Source: Mycobacteriales bacterium (GTDB lineage Bacteria > Actinomycetota > Actinomycetes > Mycobacteriales > Pseudonocardiaceae). Taken from it: a stretch of DNA of 64,000 bases. The position numbers and the translations under genes were made by a program. This document shows, piece after piece, positions 9,540 through 23,244 of this stretch (the stretch's first letter is position 1; every line of letters begins with the position of its first letter). The stretch spans positions 52,580 through 116,579 of the forward strand of contig JBBRLM010000010.1 in the NCBI GenBank assembly GCA_038231335.1. Reading direction: 5' to 3'. Under the pieces are notes generated by a model. The model searched no databases. It was not told where the DNA came from and was given only the letters and a program-made list of their open reading frames with translations.

Positions 9540-10319
9540 TCAGCCGGAGCGCGTGTCCGGGTCCAGCCGGCTGCGCAGGCGGTCGAGGGTCTGGGCCAGC
9601 AGCCGCGAGACGTGCATCTGCGAGATGCCGACCTTGTCGGCGATCTGGGTCTGCGTCATGTTGCCGAAGAACCGCAGCAGCACGATGGTGCGCTCGCGCT
9701 CGGCCAGCTCGGCGAGGACGGGCCGCAGGGCCTGCTGGAAGTCGACGCGGGCCAGCTCGGCGTCGGCCTCGCCGACCAGCTCGCCCACCGTGGCGCTGCC
9801 CTGCTCGGACGAGAGCATCTCGTCCAGCGACGAGCTGCGGTACGCCTCCGACGCCTCGAGTCCCTCCAGCACGTCGGCGACGGGGACGCCGAGCTGGTCG
9901 GCGATCTCGCTGGGGCGCGGGGCCCGGCCCAGGTCCTGGGAGAGGTTCGACACGGCGGTGTTGATCGACACGTGCAGGTCCTTGAGTCGTCGCGGCACCC
10001 GCATCGACCAGCCGAGATCGCGGAAGTGTCGTCGTACCTCACCGCTGATGGTGGGCACGGCGAAGGAGAAGAAGTCGGTGCCGCGGTCGGGGGAGTAGCG
10101 GTCGACGGCGTTGATCAGGCCGACCGTGGCCACCTGCACGAGGTCGTCGAGCGGCTCGCCGCGGTTGTTGAACCGCCGGGCGATGTGCTGCGCGACGGGG
10201 AGGAAACCGGTGACGAGCTCGTCGCGCAGCGCTTCGCGTCGCGGGTCGTCGGGGTCGAGGGCGGCGTACTTCTCGAGGAGCGGAGACAGGTGGCCGTACT
10301 CGGGGTCGCCCTGGGTCAC
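9540..10319 (-). CDS. sigF: SigB/SigF/SigG-family sigma factor (SigF-like)
   Basis: DDLVQVATVGLINAVDRY, FAVPTISGEVRRHFRD, GISQMHVSRLL; GTGA overlap with anti-sigma. Confidence 0.93.
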   Translation of the reverse strand: MTQGDPEYGHLSPLLEKYAALDPDDPRREALRDELVTGFLPVAQHIARRFNNRGEPLDDLVQVATVGLINAVDRYSPDRGTDFFSFAVPTISGEVRRHFRDLGWSMRVPRRLKDLHVSINTAVSNLSQDLGRAPRPSEIADQLGVPVADVLEGLEASEAYRSSSLDEMLSSEQGSATVGELVGEADAELARVDFQQALRPVLAELAERERTIVLLRFFGNMTQTQIADKVGISQMHVSRLLAQTLDRLRSRLDPDTRSG

Positions 10320-10756
10320 CGGGAGGTTTCGCCGGCGTGCTTGTCCAGCCGGATCCCGACCGTCGGGCCGTTGCCGTCGACGCCGGGGGTGCGCAGCGCC
10401 TGCACGTCGTCGGCGAGGGTCTGCAGCACCCGCCAGCCGAACGTGTCGGTGGAGACGGCGGCGTCGGGCTGCCCGGCGTTGACCTCGGCGCGCACCTCGA
10501 TGCGTTCCTGGCGCACGAGGAACGTGCACCGCAGCGTGGACGAGGGAGCCGCGACGTCGACGAGCGTGGCGCAGGCCTCGTCCACGGCCATGCGCAGGTC
10601 GGAGATCGCGTCGAGGTCGAAGTCGGCCCGTGCGGCGAGATCGGAGGCGACCGCCCGGATGGTGGGGATCAGCGCGGCGTTCGCCGACGTGCGGACCTCC
10701 ACGGTGGACACCCCGTCGAGCGTCTCGGCGGATGAGGGGAAGTCCAGGTCGGACAC
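10316..10756 (-). CDS. rsbW: Anti-sigma factor, UsfX/RsbW type
   Basis: DLRMAVDEACATL, FGWRVLQTLADDV; directly upstream of sigF. Confidence 0.88.
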   Translation of the reverse strand: MSDLDFPSSAETLDGVSTVEVRTSANAALIPTIRAVASDLAARADFDLDAISDLRMAVDEACATLVDVAAPSSTLRCTFLVRQERIEVRAEVNAGQPDAAVSTDTFGWRVLQTLADDVQALRTPGVDGNGPTVGIRLDKHAGETSR

Positions 10757-10808
10757 GCTGGCGGTCTCCTTCCGGTGGAACTGGCGAGGTGGTGATCGGT
10801 CATCTTGC

Positions 10809-10833
10809 TACCCGAGCGGGTGATCGTTCAAAC
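10809..10833 (-). promoter_or_regulatory. SigF-type promoter of rsbW-sigF
   Basis: Minus strand GTTT-N16-GGGTA. Confidence 0.8.
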
Positions 10834-11214
10834 GACCGCTGCGGACACATCCTCGTACATGTCGAAAAGCTGGTCGGAACCGGTGATCTGCAGGGGCCTG
10901 CGCACGGCCCGCGAGGGGGCCACGAGCCGCAGCCGCAGGTGCCGTTCCGTGGCCCGGTGGGCGGCCCGGATGAGCACCGCCAGCCCGCTGGAGGCGAGGA
11001 ACGTGACCCCGGTCAGGTCCACCACCACCAGCTGCCCGGCGCCGGGATCGGCCAGCAGATCGCGCAGGGCCTGCTCCAGCGCGGGCGCGGTGAGGGTGTC
11101 CACCTCGCCGTGGACGTCGAGGAGGGCGGTGCCGGGCCGCGGCGCGGTGATCGAGGTCCGCAGTGGCGGGGTGTCGACGGTGGGCCGGGACCCGGGAGCC
11201 ACGGGCTCGGTCAC
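10828..11214 (-). CDS. STAS anti-anti-sigma factor (RsfB/RsbV-like)
   Basis: GEVDTLTAP, DLTGVTFLASSGLAVL; GGAGG RBS. Confidence 0.92.
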   Translation of the reverse strand: MTEPVAPGSRPTVDTPPLRTSITAPRPGTALLDVHGEVDTLTAPALEQALRDLLADPGAGQLVVVDLTGVTFLASSGLAVLIRAAHRATERHLRLRLVAPSRAVRRPLQITGSDQLFDMYEDVSAAVV

Positions 11215-11342
11215 GGCGGGTCACCTCCGGCTGGTCGCGTCAGCGGTACTGGGAGCGGCTGGAGTCTCAACCACGTTGTGCGCAACATTAGCGGCGCGCC
11301 CACGTCTCGCGACCCCGGGGCGTCCGGTCCTAGGCTGTCCGG

Positions 11343-13538
11343 GTGGTGGATGTTCACGGAATGCCGCCGGCGGTGGCGGCTGCGGCGCAGCTGCCCCAGG
11401 TACTGGGTGGGGCTCCGGCCGCCATCCTCGTGATCGACCTGCGGGAGCGGATGGTCGTCTACGCCAACGCCGCGGCGATCGAGCTCACGGGTGACCGGGT
11501 CACCCTGCCCGTCGACATCGACGAGTGGGGCGACGCGGCGGGCCTCACCGACCTCGGCCGCAGGCGCATGAGCGAGACCCACTCCCCGCTGTCGATGGTG
11601 GCCAGCGGCATCCCGGTGGCCGGCGAGCCGGTCGCGGTCCACGACGAGGCGCGGCGCGGGTCGTCGGCCACCTCGGAGCAGCGGGAGGCCTCGGAGGGGC
11701 GGCTGCTGTGGGTCACGGGCTTCGGGCTGTCCGGCGTCATGGACCAACCGATCGCCGGGCCGGCTGACGGCGACCTGGAGACCCGCGCCCTGGTGGTGTT
11801 CCAGCAGCTCTCCGACACCGAGCACGGGCAGCGCCGCCGGCTCGAGGTGCTGCGCGACCGGGCCGTCGTCGCCACCGAGATGTCGTTCACGATCACCGAT
11901 CCCCGGCTGCCCGACGACCCGTTGGTCTGGGTGAACCCGTCGTTCACCCGGCTCACCGGCTATCCGCTGGACGAGGTCATCGGCAAGAACTGCCGGCTGC
12001 TGCAGGGCCCGAACACCGACCGGGCCGCGATCGACCGGATCGTCGGGGCATTGCACCGCCGGGAGCCCGTCACCGAGGTGCTGCTCAACTACCGGCGCAA
12101 CGGCACCGCCTACTGGAACCAGGTGTCGATCTCGCCGGTCTTCGACGGCACCGGCGAGCTGGTCAACTTCGTGGGCGTGCAGAACGACGTGACGGAGCGG
12201 ATCGTCGTCGAGCAGGAACGCCGGGCCGCGCTCGCCGACGCGGAGGAGGCCCGCGGGCAGCTCCGCCTGCTCGCCGAGGCCACCACGCAGATGACCGAGG
12301 CCCTGGACGTGGGGGATGCCTGCGAGCGACTCGCGAGCATCGTCGTTCCGCAGCTGGCGGACCTGTGCGCGGTGGACCTGCTGGAGCGCCCGGACTCGGC
12401 CACCCCGGTCCGGATGGCCGTGGCGGCGCGGGACGCCGCCGACGAGGCCCGTCTACGCATCCTCGGTGAGCGGCGCGACTACCGGGCGGGTGGGGGCAGC
12501 GACACCGGGTCCGTGCTCGGGGGCCGGGAGCCGGTGCTGCTGGCCGACCTGCCCGAACGGGGCACCGACCGCTATCCCGACGCCGCGGACACCGGGGCCG
12601 TCACCGCGTACGACCACCTCCGGCTCCGCTCGGCGATGGTGGTGCCGGTGCGCGCCCGGGGCCGGGTGCTCGGGTCGCTGACGCTGATGACCCAGCACCC
12701 CTACGGCCGGCGCTACGGACCGCGGGACCTGCACCTGGCCACGGACCTGGCCGGGCGCGCCGGTCTGGCCGTCGACAACGCCCGCCTCTACGAGCGCGAA
12801 CACGACGCGGCCGTCACGCTGCAGCACAGCCTGCTGCCGGCCCTGCCGGTGGTGGCCGGCCTGCAGCTCGCCGCGCGCTACCTCGTGGGCATGGACGGCA
12901 ACCAGGTCGGCGGGGACTGGTACGACGTCCTCCCGCTGCCCGACGGCGCCGTGGGTATCGCCGTGGGTGACGTGGTGGGCCACGACCTGCGCGCCGCGGC
13001 CGCCATGGGCCAGCTGCGCGGTGTGGTGCGCTCCTACGCGTGGGACGGCGGTCTGCCCGGGTCGGTGCTCGACCGTTGCGACCAGCTCGTGCAGGGCCTG
13101 GAGATGGCCGCGATGGCCACCGCGGTGTACGCCCGCATCGAGGAGCCCGATGCGACGGGCCGCCGGGTCGTCCGCTACGCCAACGCCGGCCATCCGGCGC
13201 CTCTGCTGCTGGAGCCCGACGGCACGCTCGTGCGGCTCGACCGGCAGCGGAGTCCGATGATCGGCGCGGTGCCGGACTTCGGCCGCCGCAGCGGGCCCGG
13301 CCGGGCGGAGGCCGAGGTCTCGTGCGCTCCGGGCTCGATCCTGCTGCTCTACACCGACGGCATCACCGACATCGCGGGTGAGGACGCCGACGAGCGCACC
13401 GAGCTGCTGGAACACACGGTGGCGCACCTCGAGCCGGGAACGGACGCCGAGAGCGTGGTGGAGGAGGTGCTCCGCGTGTGCGTGACCGAGGGGCTCCGCG
13501 ACGACGTGGCGCTGCTCGCGGTGCGGCTCGACGACTGA
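11343..13538 (+). CDS. PAS-LOV-GAF-PP2C (SpoIIE/RsbU-like) phosphatase, putative blue-light sensor
   Basis: LOV: TITDP..VWVNPSFTRLTGY..GKNCRLLQG..NYRRNG..WN..VGVQNDVT; PP2C: VGGDWYD, GDVVGH, NAGHP, YTDGI, DDVALL; TAGGCT -10 6 nt before GTG. Confidence 0.92.
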   Translation: MVDVHGMPPAVAAAAQLPQVLGGAPAAILVIDLRERMVVYANAAAIELTGDRVTLPVDIDEWGDAAGLTDLGRRRMSETHSPLSMVASGIPVAGEPVAVHDEARRGSSATSEQREASEGRLLWVTGFGLSGVMDQPIAGPADGDLETRALVVFQQLSDTEHGQRRRLEVLRDRAVVATEMSFTITDPRLPDDPLVWVNPSFTRLTGYPLDEVIGKNCRLLQGPNTDRAAIDRIVGALHRREPVTEVLLNYRRNGTAYWNQVSISPVFDGTGELVNFVGVQNDVTERIVVEQERRAALADAEEARGQLRLLAEATTQMTEALDVGDACERLASIVVPQLADLCAVDLLERPDSATPVRMAVAARDAADEARLRILGERRDYRAGGGSDTGSVLGGREPVLLADLPERGTDRYPDAADTGAVTAYDHLRLRSAMVVPVRARGRVLGSLTLMTQHPYGRRYGPRDLHLATDLAGRAGLAVDNARLYEREHDAAVTLQHSLLPALPVVAGLQLAARYLVGMDGNQVGGDWYDVLPLPDGAVGIAVGDVVGHDLRAAAAMGQLRGVVRSYAWDGGLPGSVLDRCDQLVQGLEMAAMATAVYARIEEPDATGRRVVRYANAGHPAPLLLEPDGTLVRLDRQRSPMIGAVPDFGRRSGPGRAEAEVSCAPGSILLLYTDGITDIAGEDADERTELLEHTVAHLEPGTDAESVVEEVLRVCVTEGLRDDVALLAVRLDD

Positions 13539-13739: not shown

Positions 13740-14345
13740 ATGGTCGCGGTTCCGGACTTGCCTGCCTCCGCCGTGCCGGTGGCGGTCCACGCCCCCGGGC
13801 GGATCGGTCTTCCCGTCCATCGCCGGAGGGCGGTCGCGGTCGCCGCGAGCGCCATGGAGCTCTTCCGCCCCGAGTCCGATCTCGCCCGCCTGCTGGAGAG
13901 CTTCCAGGAGGTCGACCTGCTGCTGGCGGCCGACGACACCCCCGTCCAGGCCTGCGGATCCGTACACGTCCTGAGCCCTGCGGGAAGCGAGCCGATCGTG
14001 CTCGACGACAGCGTCGACGACGACGAGCGCGGGGACGACGAGGCGGACGACGTCCAGGCCAGGGCTTCCGCGCTCGACCTCGCCGACCTGCAGGTGCACC
14101 GGCTGGGCCTGCTCCACCCACTCGGTCCGGCCGCGGAGGCCGACGTGGTGGCCGCGATGAGCGAGCTCGTCGGTTTCGACCCGGAGCCCGGCGTCTACTG
14201 CCTGGCTCCGGCCGTGTCGCCGTCCGACGCTGGTCGTACGGCGGTCGGACGGGCGGCACAGCGGATCGCGCAGGTCTACGGCATCCCGCTGCTGCGCTAC
14301 CGCTGCCTCGAGCTCTCGGTGGTCGGCCCGGAGCAGCTCGGGTAG
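13740..14345 (+). CDS. Hypothetical protein with acidic linker
   Basis: GAAGGAG RBS; coding-like GC3; no family recognised. Confidence 0.7.
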   Translation: MVAVPDLPASAVPVAVHAPGRIGLPVHRRRAVAVAASAMELFRPESDLARLLESFQEVDLLLAADDTPVQACGSVHVLSPAGSEPIVLDDSVDDDERGDDEADDVQARASALDLADLQVHRLGLLHPLGPAAEADVVAAMSELVGFDPEPGVYCLAPAVSPSDAGRTAVGRAAQRIAQVYGIPLLRYRCLELSVVGPEQLG

Positions 14346-14348
14346 GGC

Positions 14349-14642
14349 CTAGCTCGCCAGCGCGATCCCCTGACGCTCCAGGATGACGCGCCGCTCCGCC
14401 TCGGCGAGTCCGCCCCACACGCCGAACGGCTCACGCGTCTCCAGGGCGAACTCGCGGCACTGCTCCACCACGGGGCAGCGACCACACACCTCCTTGGCCT
14501 GCGCGGTGCGGCGGGCCCGGGACGGGTTGCGCTCGCCGTCCGGGTGGAAGAAGACGCCGCTGTCCATGCCGCGGCAGGAGCCGAGGCGCTGCCACTGCCA
14601 GGCGAAGTCCATGGGACCGGGAAGCCGCGAAACGTCGCTCAT
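14349..14642 (-). CDS. WhiB-family Fe-S regulator, WhiB3/WhiD-like
   Basis: SRLPGP..WQ..GSCRGMDSGVFFHPDGER, C-x2-C-x5-C, GVWGGL; GAGGTG RBS. Confidence 0.93.
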   Translation of the reverse strand: MSDVSRLPGPMDFAWQWQRLGSCRGMDSGVFFHPDGERNPSRARRTAQAKEVCGRCPVVEQCREFALETREPFGVWGGLAEAERRVILERQGIALAS

Positions 14643-14691: not shown

Positions 14692-14716
14692 TTCCCGGGT
14701 GGTTGCGCGACCAAAC
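14692..14716 (-). promoter_or_regulatory. SigF-type promoter of whiB-like gene
   Basis: Minus strand GTTT-N16-GGGAA, ~50 nt upstream of ATG. Confidence 0.7.
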
Positions 14717-14852: not shown

Positions 14853-15260
14853 TCAGGTCTCGGCGAGGGCCTGGTCGACCGTGTCGTGGATGTCGAACAG
14901 CGGGACGAGGCCCGCGATCGACAGCGGCCGCAGCACCCGTCGTGCGGTGCACGCGAGGCGGAGCTCCACCCCGGCCGCGTGGGCGGCCTCGCGCACCTCG
15001 ATGAGGACGGCGAGCCCGCTCGTGCCGAGGAAGGTCACCCCGTCGAGATCGAGGACGACGAGCTCGGTGCCCGCCGCGTACTGGTCGAGCACGGCGGAGC
15101 GCAGGTGCGGCGAGGTGACCATGTCGACCTCACCACCCACCTCGATGACCGTCTGCTTGTCGCCCGGGGTGCTCAGCGAGAGGGTGATCTGGTCGTCGGC
15201 ATCCCCGCCGCGGGGTACCGGCGGCGGATCGAAGGCGGGGTTCTCTCGCGTCTCAGACAT
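14853..15260 (-). CDS. STAS anti-anti-sigma factor
   Basis: GGEVDMVTSPHL, DLDGVTFLGTSGLAVL; TACGGT -10 7 nt before ATG. Confidence 0.92.
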   Translation of the reverse strand: MSETRENPAFDPPPVPRGGDADDQITLSLSTPGDKQTVIEVGGEVDMVTSPHLRSAVLDQYAAGTELVVLDLDGVTFLGTSGLAVLIEVREAAHAAGVELRLACTARRVLRPLSIAGLVPLFDIHDTVDQALAET

Positions 15261-21202: not shown

Positions 21203-22405
21203 ATGAGGACTCAACTTCTGTCGCGCGGTTTTCGTGTTTGGGTGGGCGCCGCGACGCTGTCGCAGGTCGGCGACGCGATCGTGTACTTCGCTCTGGGCTG
21301 GGCCGCGAGCGGCTACGGGGGTGTGGCCGCGGGCCTGGTGCTGGCGGGGATCACCGTGCCGCGGACCGTGTTCATGCTGGTCGGGGGCGCGGTGGCCGAT
21401 CGGCTCGGCCCGCGCGCCGTCATGCTGACGGCCGACGCGGTGCTACTGGTCGGTTCGGTCGGCGCCGCCGTGGCCGTGGCGGTGGTGGGCACGCCGCTGT
21501 GGCTGCTGCTCACCGTCGCGGTGCTGATCGGCGTCGTCACGTCGTTCTACTTCCCGGCGTCGGGATCGCTTCCGGCCCGGCTGGTCCCGCGCGATCAGTT
21601 GCCCCGGGCCATGGCGCTGCGCAATGCGGGCATGCAGTTCGCGTCGGTCGCCGGGGGACCTCTGGGTGGGCCGCTGGTGATCGTGGGCGGGCTGGCGGGC
21701 GCACTCGGCGCGAACGCCGTGTCGTTCGTGGCTGTCCTCGCCGTCATGTTGCGACTGCGCCCCGCGGTGCCCGAGACGGTCGTGGTCCGGCGACCCCTGC
21801 TCACCGAGATCGGCGACGGGCTGCGGGTGGCGGCGCGGGTGCCGGCCCTGCGGCTGGTGCTCGTGCTCTACGCGCTGGCCGGCGGCTTCGTCCTGCCGGT
21901 CAGCTCGCTGCTCGTCCCGTTGCTGGGCCGTGAGCAGGGGTGGGACGCCGCGCACACCGGTTTCGTCGTCGGCGCGATCAGCGTCGGGGCGCTGGCCGGG
22001 GCGCTCGTGTTCAGCCGGACCGGAACGTGGCGGCGGGTCGGGCTCGCGTCCGGGGCCGGGCTGGTCGTGATCGCCTTCGGGGCGGTGGCGCTGGCCGTGG
22101 CGCCGTCGCTGGGGGTCGTCACCGGGGTGGTCACGGGTGTGGCGCTGGCGGTGTTCATCGCGCACGCGGGGCCGCTGATCGTCGCGTCGACGCCCGACAC
22201 GCACCTCTCCCGCGTGCAGGCGCTGCTCGGGGTGGTGCAGAGCGCTGCGCTGGTGGGCACGAACCTGCTGCTCGGGTGGCTGGCGCACGCCGGAGCCGGG
22301 CTCGCGTTGCTGGTGGCAGCCGGAGTGCTGGGGGCGACCGGTGTGCTCGCCGCCGTACACCCCGCTCTGCGGGCGGCTAGTGCGCCGCGGCCAGTGCCTC
22401 GGTGA
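21203..22405 (+). CDS. MFS transporter (macrolide-efflux/DHA3-like)
   Basis: LSQVGD, GGAVADRLGPR, ~12 TM. Confidence 0.9.
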   Translation: MRTQLLSRGFRVWVGAATLSQVGDAIVYFALGWAASGYGGVAAGLVLAGITVPRTVFMLVGGAVADRLGPRAVMLTADAVLLVGSVGAAVAVAVVGTPLWLLLTVAVLIGVVTSFYFPASGSLPARLVPRDQLPRAMALRNAGMQFASVAGGPLGGPLVIVGGLAGALGANAVSFVAVLAVMLRLRPAVPETVVVRRPLLTEIGDGLRVAARVPALRLVLVLYALAGGFVLPVSSLLVPLLGREQGWDAAHTGFVVGAISVGALAGALVFSRTGTWRRVGLASGAGLVVIAFGAVALAVAPSLGVVTGVVTGVALAVFIAHAGPLIVASTPDTHLSRVQALLGVVQSAALVGTNLLLGWLAHAGAGLALLVAAGVLGATGVLAAVHPALRAASAPRPVPR

Positions 22406-22781
22406 CGTCGTCGGCGATCGTGAACAGCTGGAGCAGGCCGGTGGCCTCGAGCGCCCGCTTGACGATGCGCGAGCCGGGCACGACCACGAGCCGGCAGCCG
22501 CGGTTCTCGGCGTCGTCCTTGGCCCCGACCAGCACGGCGAGGCCGGCCGAGCCGAGGAACGTGACGTCGGAGAGGTCGAGCACCAGGTGCGCGACCTGGG
22601 ACTGCTGCTCCAGGAGCCGGACCTGCAGCAGAGGGGCGGTCAGCGTGTCGAGCTCGCCGACGACGTGCAGCACGTGCACATCCGGGCCGTGGTCGACCAC
22701 GTCGAAACGGATGATCTCGCCGACGTCGGTGCCGTCACCGGCGCCCGTGTCGACAGGCGGATCGACGTTCATACTGCGCAC
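22377..22781 (-). CDS. STAS anti-anti-sigma factor
   Basis: GELDTLTAP, DLSDVTFLGSAGLAVL; AAGGAG RBS (start GTG 22781 or ATG 22772). Confidence 0.92.
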   Translation of the reverse strand: MRSMNVDPPVDTGAGDGTDVGEIIRFDVVDHGPDVHVLHVVGELDTLTAPLLQVRLLEQQSQVAHLVLDLSDVTFLGSAGLAVLVGAKDDAENRGCRLVVVPGSRIVKRALEATGLLQLFTIADDVTEALAAAH

Positions 22782-22888: not shown

Positions 22889-22913
22889 GTTTGAGCGGGT
22901 GTGACGCGGGGTA
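22889..22913 (+). promoter_or_regulatory. SigF-type promoter of DUF2795-like gene
   Basis: GTTT-N16-GGGTA. Confidence 0.75.
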
Positions 22914-22962
22914 CACCGAGTCAGGCGGACGCGGCGGGCGAACGCCTCACGAGGAGGTCACC

Positions 22963-23244
22963 GTGCACCGCAGCACCCCCCGCGCCGACGTCGAACGCCT
23001 CTCCCAGGTGCTCGCCGACGCCACGTTCCCGGCCGCGAAGTGGCAGCTCCTCATGCACGCGGAGCAGTACGGCGCCGACTCCGCGACCCGCACCGACCTG
23101 TGGGTGCTTCCGGCGGGCGACTACCGGTCGCTGACCGACGTGCTGGTCGCGCTCGGGCTGGTCACCGTCCCGGCGCGACGTCCGCCGGCCTACCGTCCGC
23201 AGCCCCGGATCCAGGCGGCGGAACGGGAGCAGAGCCCGGGCTGA
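22963..23244 (+). CDS. DUF2795-like small protein
   Basis: LADATFPAAKWQLLMHAEQYGAD..LP..YRSLTDV; GAGGAGG RBS. Confidence 0.75.
   Translation: MHRSTPRADVERLSQVLADATFPAAKWQLLMHAEQYGADSATRTDLWVLPAGDYRSLTDVLVALGLVTVPARRPPAYRPQPRIQAAEREQSPG

Follow-up and report, generated by a model that had tools for sequence, protein, structure and literature searches.

What might a putative light-sensing phosphatase be doing beside the genes of a sigma-factor switch? The question is raised by a 64,000-nucleotide stretch of DNA (the window: contig JBBRLM010000010.1 of assembly GCA_038231335.1, positions 52,580 to 116,579; GC content about 72%), which derives from a Pseudonocardia genome of 7.5 Mb in 215 contigs. 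Within the window, a gene for a phosphatase with PAS, LOV, GAF and PP2C domains lies back to back with genes for a STAS protein, the anti-sigma factor UsfX and the sigma factor SigF. Proteins that join LOV and PP2C domains have been counted in surveys for more than ten years, and a 2014 survey placed SpoIIE-type phosphatases among the typical prokaryotic LOV effectors, reporting their architecture and not their function (PMC4844311). Full-text searches of the accessible literature found no paper on the photocycle, substrate, regulon or sigma-factor target of a bacterial LOV-PP2C protein. The architecture is therefore already catalogued; what is new here is a genus-wide genomic context that gives a testable assignment of light to SigF without a stressosome. 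We lean, by a small degree, towards the view that the protein is a dimeric flavin-binding blue-light receptor with a PP2C output, whose signal would run from light through STAS and UsfX to SigF.

The phosphatase gene (11343..13538, plus strand) is an open reading frame for 731 amino acids whose domains were read from Pfam, NCBIfam and PDB matches and from an AlphaFold2 model. A second form on record, of 725 amino acids, starts at an ATG at 11361. The closest relative of the protein, from Pseudonocardia sp. 73-21, is 88% identical. Pfam matches comprise a short PAS_8 (residues 20-56), PAS_9 (190-285, 1.8e-21), GAF_2 (321-478, 1.3e-09) and SpoIIE (533-729, 1.3e-39). The second PAS region is a LOV domain (residues 173-290; 11859..12212, plus strand; NCBIfam and PDB alignment), and it is the only LOV domain in the 7.5 Mb genome. 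Residues 173-298 align to the YtvA family (NCBIfam, 2.5e-39) and also to blue-light-activated histidine kinases, with a BluLightHisKinLov match of 4.3e-37 over residues 172-298 and matches of 1e-37 to 1e-40 to LOV histidine kinases such as LovK and the Brucella LOV histidine kinase. The whole phosphatase scores 135 bits against the YtvA family and misses its cut-off of 250, because only the LOV domain matches. A PDB search with this domain returned 150 LOV chains, headed by the LOV domains of aureochrome, phototropin and YtvA (best 2.6e-32).

Aligned to a solved relative, the domain reads GKNCRLLQGP against GRNCRFLQGP and NYRRNG against NYRKDG, and WNQ and VGVQ are also present. The motif GKNCRLLQ begins at residue 214, so that the predicted adduct-forming cysteine is Cys217 (TGC, 11991-11993), and Q221, N249, N259 and Q280 align with the flavin-contacting residues of the aureochrome LOV domain. 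Conservation was assessed in a sample of 57 Pseudonocardia loci, which includes 55 intact phosphatase orthologues at 60-88% identity, and in an alignment of 22 sequences that extends to homologues from other orders at 40-45% identity. Cys217 is invariant in 55 of 55 intact orthologues, and N216, C217, R218, Q221, N249, N259 and Q280 are invariant throughout the 22-sequence alignment, distant homologues included. These alignments show a LOV signature with no element missing, maintained by strong purifying selection. The domain is very probably photoactive, with a predicted flavin chromophore and a predicted photocycle.

LOV stands for light, oxygen and voltage, and some LOV proteins are modulated by flavin redox state. 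The domain might thus report flavin redox or oxygen, or act as a constitutive dimerisation module, which would make the phosphatase a redox or metabolic input in a genus that is mostly soil-dwelling. The additional N-terminal PAS domain and the GAF domain suggest further ligands, and respiratory-chain status is a signal to which mycobacterial SigF responds (PMC7693655, PMC10950880). However, strict retention of the adduct cysteine and of the flavin-contacting asparagines and glutamines, in the 55 orthologues and in distant homologues alike, is typical of photoactive LOV domains, and the best LOV matches are all bona fide photoreceptors. Sensing of something other than light is accordingly the least probable of the alternatives weighed here.

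The output end of the protein is a PP2C/SpoIIE domain (residues 533-729; 12939..13529, plus strand), which scores 136.6 bits against a Pfam cut-off of 25 and covers profile positions 1-191 of 192. Its metal-binding and catalytic motifs are intact (GGDWYD, GDVVGHD, NAGHP, YTDG and RDDVALL). The nearest solved PP2C domain is that of Mycobacterium tuberculosis Rv1364c (2.4e-19), with which the metal-binding aspartates align, and D525 and D528 (GGDWYD), D543 (GDVVGH), D672 (YTDG) and D720/D721 are invariant even in the homologues of 40-45% identity. Judged from the gene neighbourhood, the substrate is probably a STAS protein.

Sensor and output appear to be joined by long helices. The AlphaFold2 model, which took 22 homologues as input and has a mean predicted local distance difference test score (pLDDT) of 78, lays the protein out as a PAS-like domain (27-155), a LOV core (181-282) that forms a five-stranded PAS core, a 35-residue helix (284-318; 12192..12296, plus strand), a GAF domain (323-451), a 38-residue helix (460-497) and the PP2C domain (507-729). 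The GAF fold in the model coincides with the Pfam match at residues 321-478 (12303..12776, plus strand), and the helix that precedes PP2C is seen in what is a monomer model. The helix between LOV and GAF is a candidate coiled-coil signalling helix. The spacing between LOV and GAF markers is identical in all Pseudonocardia orthologues, and the linker of one distant homologue is longer by exactly 7 residues; a coiled coil would be expected to behave in this way. Linker-mediated dimerisation has been proposed as a general means of activating PAS-, GAF- and REC-PP2C phosphatases (REC being a receiver domain), in a sensor-linker-PP2C model that covers PAS, GAF, REC and HAMP sensors and does not mention LOV (PMC12143880).

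A first-pass annotation of the window, made from the letters alone, had described much of this protein. It had claimed a LOV signature with the photoadduct cysteine at 11991-11993, which is correct to the base, and flavin-binding asparagines (NYRRNG, WN) with a signalling glutamine (VGVQND), all of which are present and align with solved LOV domains. Of the parts that it placed after LOV, the GAF and PP2C domains were recovered by Pfam and in the model, and the coiled linker as a predicted helix in the model; the metal-binding aspartate motifs that it mentioned are there and invariant among homologues. Within the genus the protein also varies: the N-terminal PAS domain is absent in four species (loci L043, L045-L047), leaving a protein of about 570 amino acids, and in three species (L039, L049, L054) the motif G(R/K)NCR(F/L)LQ is replaced by GRDCRFLQ, with aspartate for the asparagine that precedes the photoactive cysteine.

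The first-pass annotation also had the phosphatase gene divergent from a STAS gene directly upstream of rsbW-sigF, and this order, STAS1-usfX-sigF on the minus strand, is what the locus holds. The sigF gene (9540..10319, minus strand; start taken from a gene call based on GC at third codon positions, GC3) encodes a 259-residue sigma factor of the SigB/SigF/SigG family with Pfam sigma-70 regions r2, r3 and r4. It scores 278.5 bits against TIGR02980 (SigBFG; cut-off 234.35) and 335.7 bits against the narrower SigF model NF005514, which is under the cut-off of 372 for that model. Its start overlaps the stop of usfX by 4 nucleotides. The usfX gene (10316..10756, minus strand) encodes a UsfX/RsbW1-like anti-SigF factor of 146 residues, which matches the M. 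tuberculosis ‘Anti-sigma-F factor RsbW’ (8ih8_C) over residues 1-139 at 3.4e-17 and is, by local BLAST, the single orthologue of the UsfX type in the genome.

STAS1 (10828..11214, minus strand; 128 amino acids; Pfam STAS 1.7e-17) is RsfB-like. By local BLAST it is the best match in the genome to M. tuberculosis RsfB (8ih8_A; 7e-14, 55 bits), and the putatively phosphorylatable serine of its FLASSGL motif aligns with the serine of RsfB FLGSVGL, which is taken as the phosphorylated residue (PMC7693655). Without exception, 41 orthologues keep this serine. The M. tuberculosis RsfB-RsbW pair has been solved as complex 8ih8, to whose two partners STAS1 and UsfX are the best matches that the genome offers. 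A SigF-type promoter, GTTTGA-N-GGGTA (10809..10833, minus strand), was found by motif search 53 nucleotides before usfX and suggests autoregulation. In the main clade of orthologous loci it reads GATTGA/GTTTGA-N16-GGGTAGCAAGATG, with the -10 region GGGTAGCAAGATG kept.

Comparison of the orthologous loci resolves the neighbourhood into two conserved modules. One is flavin adenine dinucleotide (FAD) reductase-sigF-usfX-STAS1, and the other LOV-PP2C-orf201-whiB3-like-STAS2. In the second, the phosphatase gene is followed by orf201 (13740..14345, plus strand; 201 amino acids; 56 of 57 loci), then by a gene for a WhiB3/WhiD-like iron-sulphur transcription factor (14349..14642, minus strand; Pfam Whib 1e-24; M. 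tuberculosis WhiB3, 8cwr, 1.1e-30) and by STAS2 (14853..15260, minus strand; Pfam STAS 5.2e-20). STAS2, which is on record in this 135-residue form, carries a threonine at the phospho-site (FLGTSGL) that every intact orthologue in the alignment retains. The whiB3-like gene is linked to the phosphatase gene in 57 of 57 loci, STAS2 is linked to it in every locus reaching that far, and all four genes are contiguous wherever the locus extends far enough (about 55 of 57).

The modules are adjacent to one another in about 42 of the 57 loci and non-adjacent in about a quarter of the species sampled. Where they split, STAS1 stays with usfX-sigF. In one locus, L037, about 4.5 kb of inserted DNA separates the modules. 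Among the split genomes checked, usfX lies on the contig of the phosphatase in 10 of 10, L037 included, and the modules are 14-20 kb apart in the eight whose contig coordinates were compared. Throughout the genus, then, the neighbourhood ties the phosphatase to the SigF system, but most tightly to STAS2. Since there are two modules that are sometimes split, the substrate may be STAS1 (at its serine), STAS2 (at its threonine) or both. The non-adjacent loci fall in one clade (L005-L007, L022, L023, L025, L043, L045-L047, L049, L054 and L055, and L079-L088).

These elements suggest a pathway. Blue light would create an adduct between flavin mononucleotide (FMN) and Cys217 in the LOV core, and the resulting change would travel along the 35-residue helix to the GAF domain and along the second long helix to the phosphatase. 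There, an altered arrangement of the dimer and its switch helix would set PP2C activity, as has been proposed generally for RsbU-type phosphatases. The phosphatase would strip phosphate from the serine of STAS1, the threonine of STAS2, or both, and the phosphate itself would have been added by a separate RsbW2-type kinase encoded elsewhere. Unphosphorylated STAS would then bind the kinase-less UsfX and free SigF, which would transcribe its own operon, the whiB3-like gene and a small general-stress regulon (DUF2795, CsbD, DUF2383, SRPBCC and similar genes). From the sequence we infer SigF as the output, and likewise the sign of the light effect and the STAS protein and kinase that would act. 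SigF is favoured as the output, if narrowly, and light probably feeds into the general stress response.

Several observations weigh against this pathway. Sequence comparison finds no recognisable N, G1 or G2 kinase box in UsfX, whose N-box position reads EACATLV (EACTNAV in Bacillus subtilis RsbW, EVCTRLI in M. tuberculosis UsfX); a separate kinase must therefore phosphorylate the STAS protein, and the locus contains no kinase gene. The closest genomic ties of the phosphatase are to orf201, the whiB3-like gene and STAS2; its tie to the sigF module is looser, and in one clade that module is split off. Synteny with sigF, to which the first-pass annotation had looked for confirmation, holds within the genus and stops there, as none of ten homologous contexts outside Pseudonocardia has a SigB/F-type sigma gene nearby. 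Both the phosphatase gene and STAS1 apparently have housekeeping-type promoters, and so there is no visible feedback from SigF onto them. The predicted SigF regulon holds no obviously light-related gene, save one for dodecin with a relaxed motif. Finally, the genome encodes 12 SpoIIE phosphatases, 11 STAS proteins, about 15 strong RsbW-type ATPase domains and three SigB/F-type sigma factors, and cross-talk or other pairings are therefore possible.

A kinase separate from the anti-sigma factor has a precedent in mycobacteria. In Mycobacterium smegmatis, RsbW1 only sequesters SigF, while RsbW2 phosphorylates RsfB at Ser-63 and RsfR, a receiver-PP2C protein, dephosphorylates it and so activates SigF (PMC7693655, PMC10950880). 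RsbW-like genes with an intact N-box occur elsewhere in the Pseudonocardia genome (C52:41592-42059, C21:86935-87333, C37:44715-45149, C37:30286-30573 and C28:75135-75578, by contig). The first of these candidate kinases sits in an operon with a STAS gene (C52:41168-42059), and two of the others show weak similarity to the kinases encoded beside LOV-PP2C genes outside Pseudonocardia. The genome also has a REC-PP2C gene (C20:68492-69643), which may be the counterpart of RsfR. Of the chain that the first-pass annotation had drawn, from PP2C through STAS and UsfX/RsbW to SigF, the RsfB-like STAS protein, the UsfX orthologue and SigF are borne out as linked across the genus; the kinase is missing from it, and STAS2 proves to be the tighter partner.

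The synteny lends itself to another explanation, in which the light-sensing phosphatase acts on STAS2 only, and the output is another sigma factor (one of the SigB/F paralogues on contigs C9 and C1) or a developmental circuit around the whiB3-like gene. The contiguity of PP2C, orf201, whiB3-like and STAS2 in about 55 of 57 loci, with the sigF module split off in about a quarter, fits this. STAS2 is also more distant from RsfB than STAS1 is (1.6e-09 and 41 bits, as against 55 bits), and NCBI labels one of its orthologues ‘BldG’. The Streptomyces BldG protein has pleiotropic effects as an antagonist, and several kinases serve it. Moreover, the other two SigB/F-type sigma genes have neither an anti-sigma factor gene nor a STAS gene adjacent to them. 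Nevertheless, STAS2 and the phosphatase gene are two genes apart and lie on opposite strands, and the whiB3-like gene between them has a conserved SigF-type promoter that ties the module to SigF in any case. UsfX is the only anti-sigma factor of its type in the genome. Even where the modules are split, the sigF module is on the same contig (10 of 10) and within 20 kb in the eight genomes compared. An output confined to STAS2 is therefore unlikely, although of the rivals to a light-STAS-UsfX-SigF pathway it is the strongest.

The distribution of LOV-PP2C proteins beyond Pseudonocardia bears on whether the neighbourhood is informative at all. In an exhaustive HMMER search, about 70 of the best 150 clusters at 50% identity combine NCR(F/L)LQ with the PP2C motif, with named members in Kineococcus, Jatrophihabitans, Jiangellales and unclassified Actinomycetota. 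The statement in the first-pass annotation that such fusions are predicted in a few actinobacteria was thus an understatement, as several orders of Actinomycetota are represented. Among the contexts read, the ten others included, a LOV-GAF-PP2C gene stands beside sigF only in Pseudonocardia. Two of the ten (Kineococcus and Jatrophihabitans) have an adjacent gene for an RsbW-type kinase with an intact N-box, and in three (Jiangellales and metagenomes) the LOV-GAF-PP2C protein is fused to an RsbW-like HATPase_c_2 domain; the Jiangellales locus has two STAS genes 2-3.5 kb upstream. With RsbW-type kinases adjacent or fused, the whole family looks like partner-switching phosphatases. Several distant homologues join light sensor, phosphatase and kinase/anti-sigma domain in one chain, and among those at L092:7001-9142, L093:7001-9514 and L096:6001-8544 is the one with the extra linker heptad. 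More distant loci from a tblastn search (L058-L068, in Isoptericola, Streptomyces, Modestobacter and Kineosporia) were rejected as LOV proteins: they have no NCR..Q motif and are GAF/PAS-PP2C paralogues.

Most homologues outside Pseudonocardia are thus orphans or are paired with an RsbW-type kinase of their own and not with a sigma factor. This pattern, the many partner-switching paralogues in the genome and the locus without a kinase would all suit a neighbourhood that is merely historical, with the phosphatase acting on a phosphoprotein encoded elsewhere (the STAS-RsbW operon at C52:41168-42059, for example) and light unrelated to SigF. Against this, the linkage has been kept across the genus even though orthologues diverge down to 60% identity, and three of the 11 STAS genes of the genome lie within 12 kb of the phosphatase gene. 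Placement by chance beside the single usfX-sigF operon, among some 6,700 genes, would have a likelihood of the order of 3e-4. A purely historical neighbourhood is hence rather improbable, slightly more so than an output confined to STAS2.

If SigF is the output, its promoters should indicate what light would control. The genome contains nine strict matches to the mycobacterial SigF consensus GTTT-N15-17-GGGTA. For eight of the nine, a gene in the same direction starts no more than 60 bp downstream, against a mean of 1.85 and a maximum of 6 such cases for 39 composition-matched control motifs. Two of the eight are in the window. One is the promoter of usfX, and the other (22889-22913) precedes a DUF2795 general-stress gene at 22963-23244 (together 22889..23244, plus strand; motif search and Pfam). 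The remaining predicted targets include CsbD, DUF2383, SRPBCC, DoxX and Hva1-TUDOR genes, which are classic general-stress genes. A further SigF-like promoter, GTTTG-N16-GGGAA (14692..14716, minus strand; motif search), lies before the whiB3-like gene. There, GTTTG-N15/16-GGGAA is kept in about 48 of 57 loci while the spacer sequence varies, and this candidate promoter forms a clear phylogenetic footprint.

The first-pass annotation had noted that SigF controls carotenoid genes in M. smegmatis. Such a link finds no support here: crude motif regexes run over the genome, and the set of predicted SigF promoters, gave no photolyase, CarH or crt genes, although both are weak tests. What the regexes left over was a squalene/phytoene-synthase-like protein of 569 amino acids on contig C11 and a B12 motif in three large proteins, none of them CarH-like. 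The dodecin (flavin-storage) gene at C15:44208-44417 has a relaxed SigF-like motif, GTTG-N-GGGTA, 11 nucleotides before its start, and if this motif is real the gene would be a flavin-related member of the regulon.

The 128-bp intergenic region between STAS1 and the phosphatase gene contains no SigF-type promoter. On the phosphatase side, a candidate -10 element, TAGGCT (11331..11336, plus strand), stands 6 nucleotides before the GTG start at 11343, and of the 24 orthologous regions displayed, at least 14 have the pattern TA(G/C/A)nnT-N6-(G/A)TG. This spacing suggests a leaderless transcript of the SigA type and supports the start codon chosen in the first-pass annotation. On the STAS1 side, anchored intergenic sequences point to a candidate housekeeping-type -10 element, TAATGT (11285..11290, minus strand), which is TAGGGT in most orthologues. 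The predicted 5' end of the STAS1 mRNA holds a conserved element, GGTTGAG-N4-5-CAGCCG (11256..11272, minus strand), which about 27 of the 40 orthologous intergenic regions share. The element could be a site for protein binding, or it could fold into a hairpin of 5 bp (GGUUG/CAGCC), in which no covariation was seen.

Set beside known systems, the locus most resembles those of M. smegmatis and M. tuberculosis in its sigma-factor module, with a SigF orthologue, a kinase-less UsfX and an RsfB-like STAS protein that has a conserved phospho-serine. It also shares with them an autoregulatory GTTT-N-GGGTA before usfX, a PP2C phosphatase as presumed activator and a kinase separate from the anti-sigma factor (PMC7693655, PMC10950880). 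It differs in that the linked PP2C protein carries PAS-LOV-GAF in place of the receiver domain of RsfR, which is under a CHASE3 histidine kinase (RsfS), in that a STAS gene lies directly upstream of usfX-sigF, and in that the phosphatase has a second STAS gene and a whiB3-like gene among its linked neighbours. As in the YtvA-SigB pathway of B. subtilis and Listeria, a blue-light LOV domain would feed a cascade of PP2C, STAS and anti-sigma factor, with release of a sigma factor of the SigB/SigF family at its end. Here, however, LOV is fused to GAF-PP2C and not to STAS inside a stressosome, no RsbR/S/T step is implied, and the anti-sigma factor, unlike that of the B. subtilis SigB pathway, is not a kinase.

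Other parallels concern the phosphatase itself. M. tuberculosis Rv1364c and Streptomyces coelicolor OsaC likewise place PAS/GAF sensors and helical linkers before a SpoIIE-type PP2C domain in the control of SigF/SigB, but these are PAS/GAF-PP2C-RsbW proteins, whereas in the Pseudonocardia protein neither a kinase nor a STAS domain is fused to the phosphatase, and sensing falls to a LOV domain that has the photoactive cysteine. The PAS domain of Rv1364c binds a fatty acid. In the alphaproteobacterial LovK and the Brucella LOV histidine kinase, too, a coiled-coil helix couples LOV to a catalytic output, and a stress sigma factor is controlled through partner switching; that output is a histidine kinase feeding PhyR-NepR-EcfG, in contrast to a Ser/Thr phosphatase acting on STAS. 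With the predicted LOV-SpoIIE proteins of earlier surveys, the protein shares its domain combination, to which the Pseudonocardia context adds a candidate output.

In its fullest form, the proposal is that the sole LOV photoreceptor of the genus uses blue light to set the phosphorylation of two STAS proteins, thereby switching on, by way of the kinase-less anti-sigma factor, SigF, its general-stress regulon and a WhiB3-like redox or developmental regulator. It would be the first worked example of a photoreceptor with a PP2C phosphatase as its catalytic output, and its route to a stress sigma factor in Actinomycetota would be free of a stressosome. In that entirety the proposal is tentative, with chances that fall somewhat below even. 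From the sequence come two STAS proteins, UsfX and SigF as candidate partners, along with three SigF-type promoters that could serve as reporters, and the LOV-PP2C class is therefore directly testable. If the proposal is right, actinomycetes that are not phototrophic pass a light signal to the SigF general stress response with no stressosome in between, the model of Bradshaw and colleagues (‘sensor - coiled coil - PP2C dimer’) extends to a sensor that can be triggered on demand, and there exists a natural light-switchable Ser/Thr phosphatase that may serve as an optogenetic tool. Should it fail, the protein would still be an ordinary, well-conserved partner-switching paralogue.

Some further features of the window and genome deserve mention. 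A third STAS gene, STAS3 (22377..22772, minus strand; Pfam STAS 4.1e-21; nearest to SpoIIAA), lies 9 kb away and is divergent from the DUF2795 gene with its perfect SigF promoter, GTTTGAGCGGGTGTGACGCGGGGTAC. At C37:43665-45149, a perfect SigF promoter is followed by a gene for a luciferase-like oxidoreductase and then by an RsbW-like gene with an intact N-box, an arrangement that resembles rsbW3 of M. smegmatis, which is SigF-dependent. A second SigB/F-type sigma gene (C9:123078-124438) lies downstream of an SRPBCC gene with the SigF-like promoter GGTTGA-N-GGGTA, and a sigma cascade is possible there.

The product of orf201 has no Pfam match. Its AlphaFold2 model (pLDDT 76.8) has a Rossmann-like alpha/beta fold, for which Foldseek gives weak Rossmann, LmbE-like, CARF and PPAT-like matches (E >= 1e-3; template-modelling (TM) score at most 0.48) and no catalytic motif. 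The middle of the protein is acidic and variable, and its C-terminal half is conserved as HRLGL..DLVAALSELxGFDPEPGV.C.AP...RA..R.A.VYG.P.LRYR.

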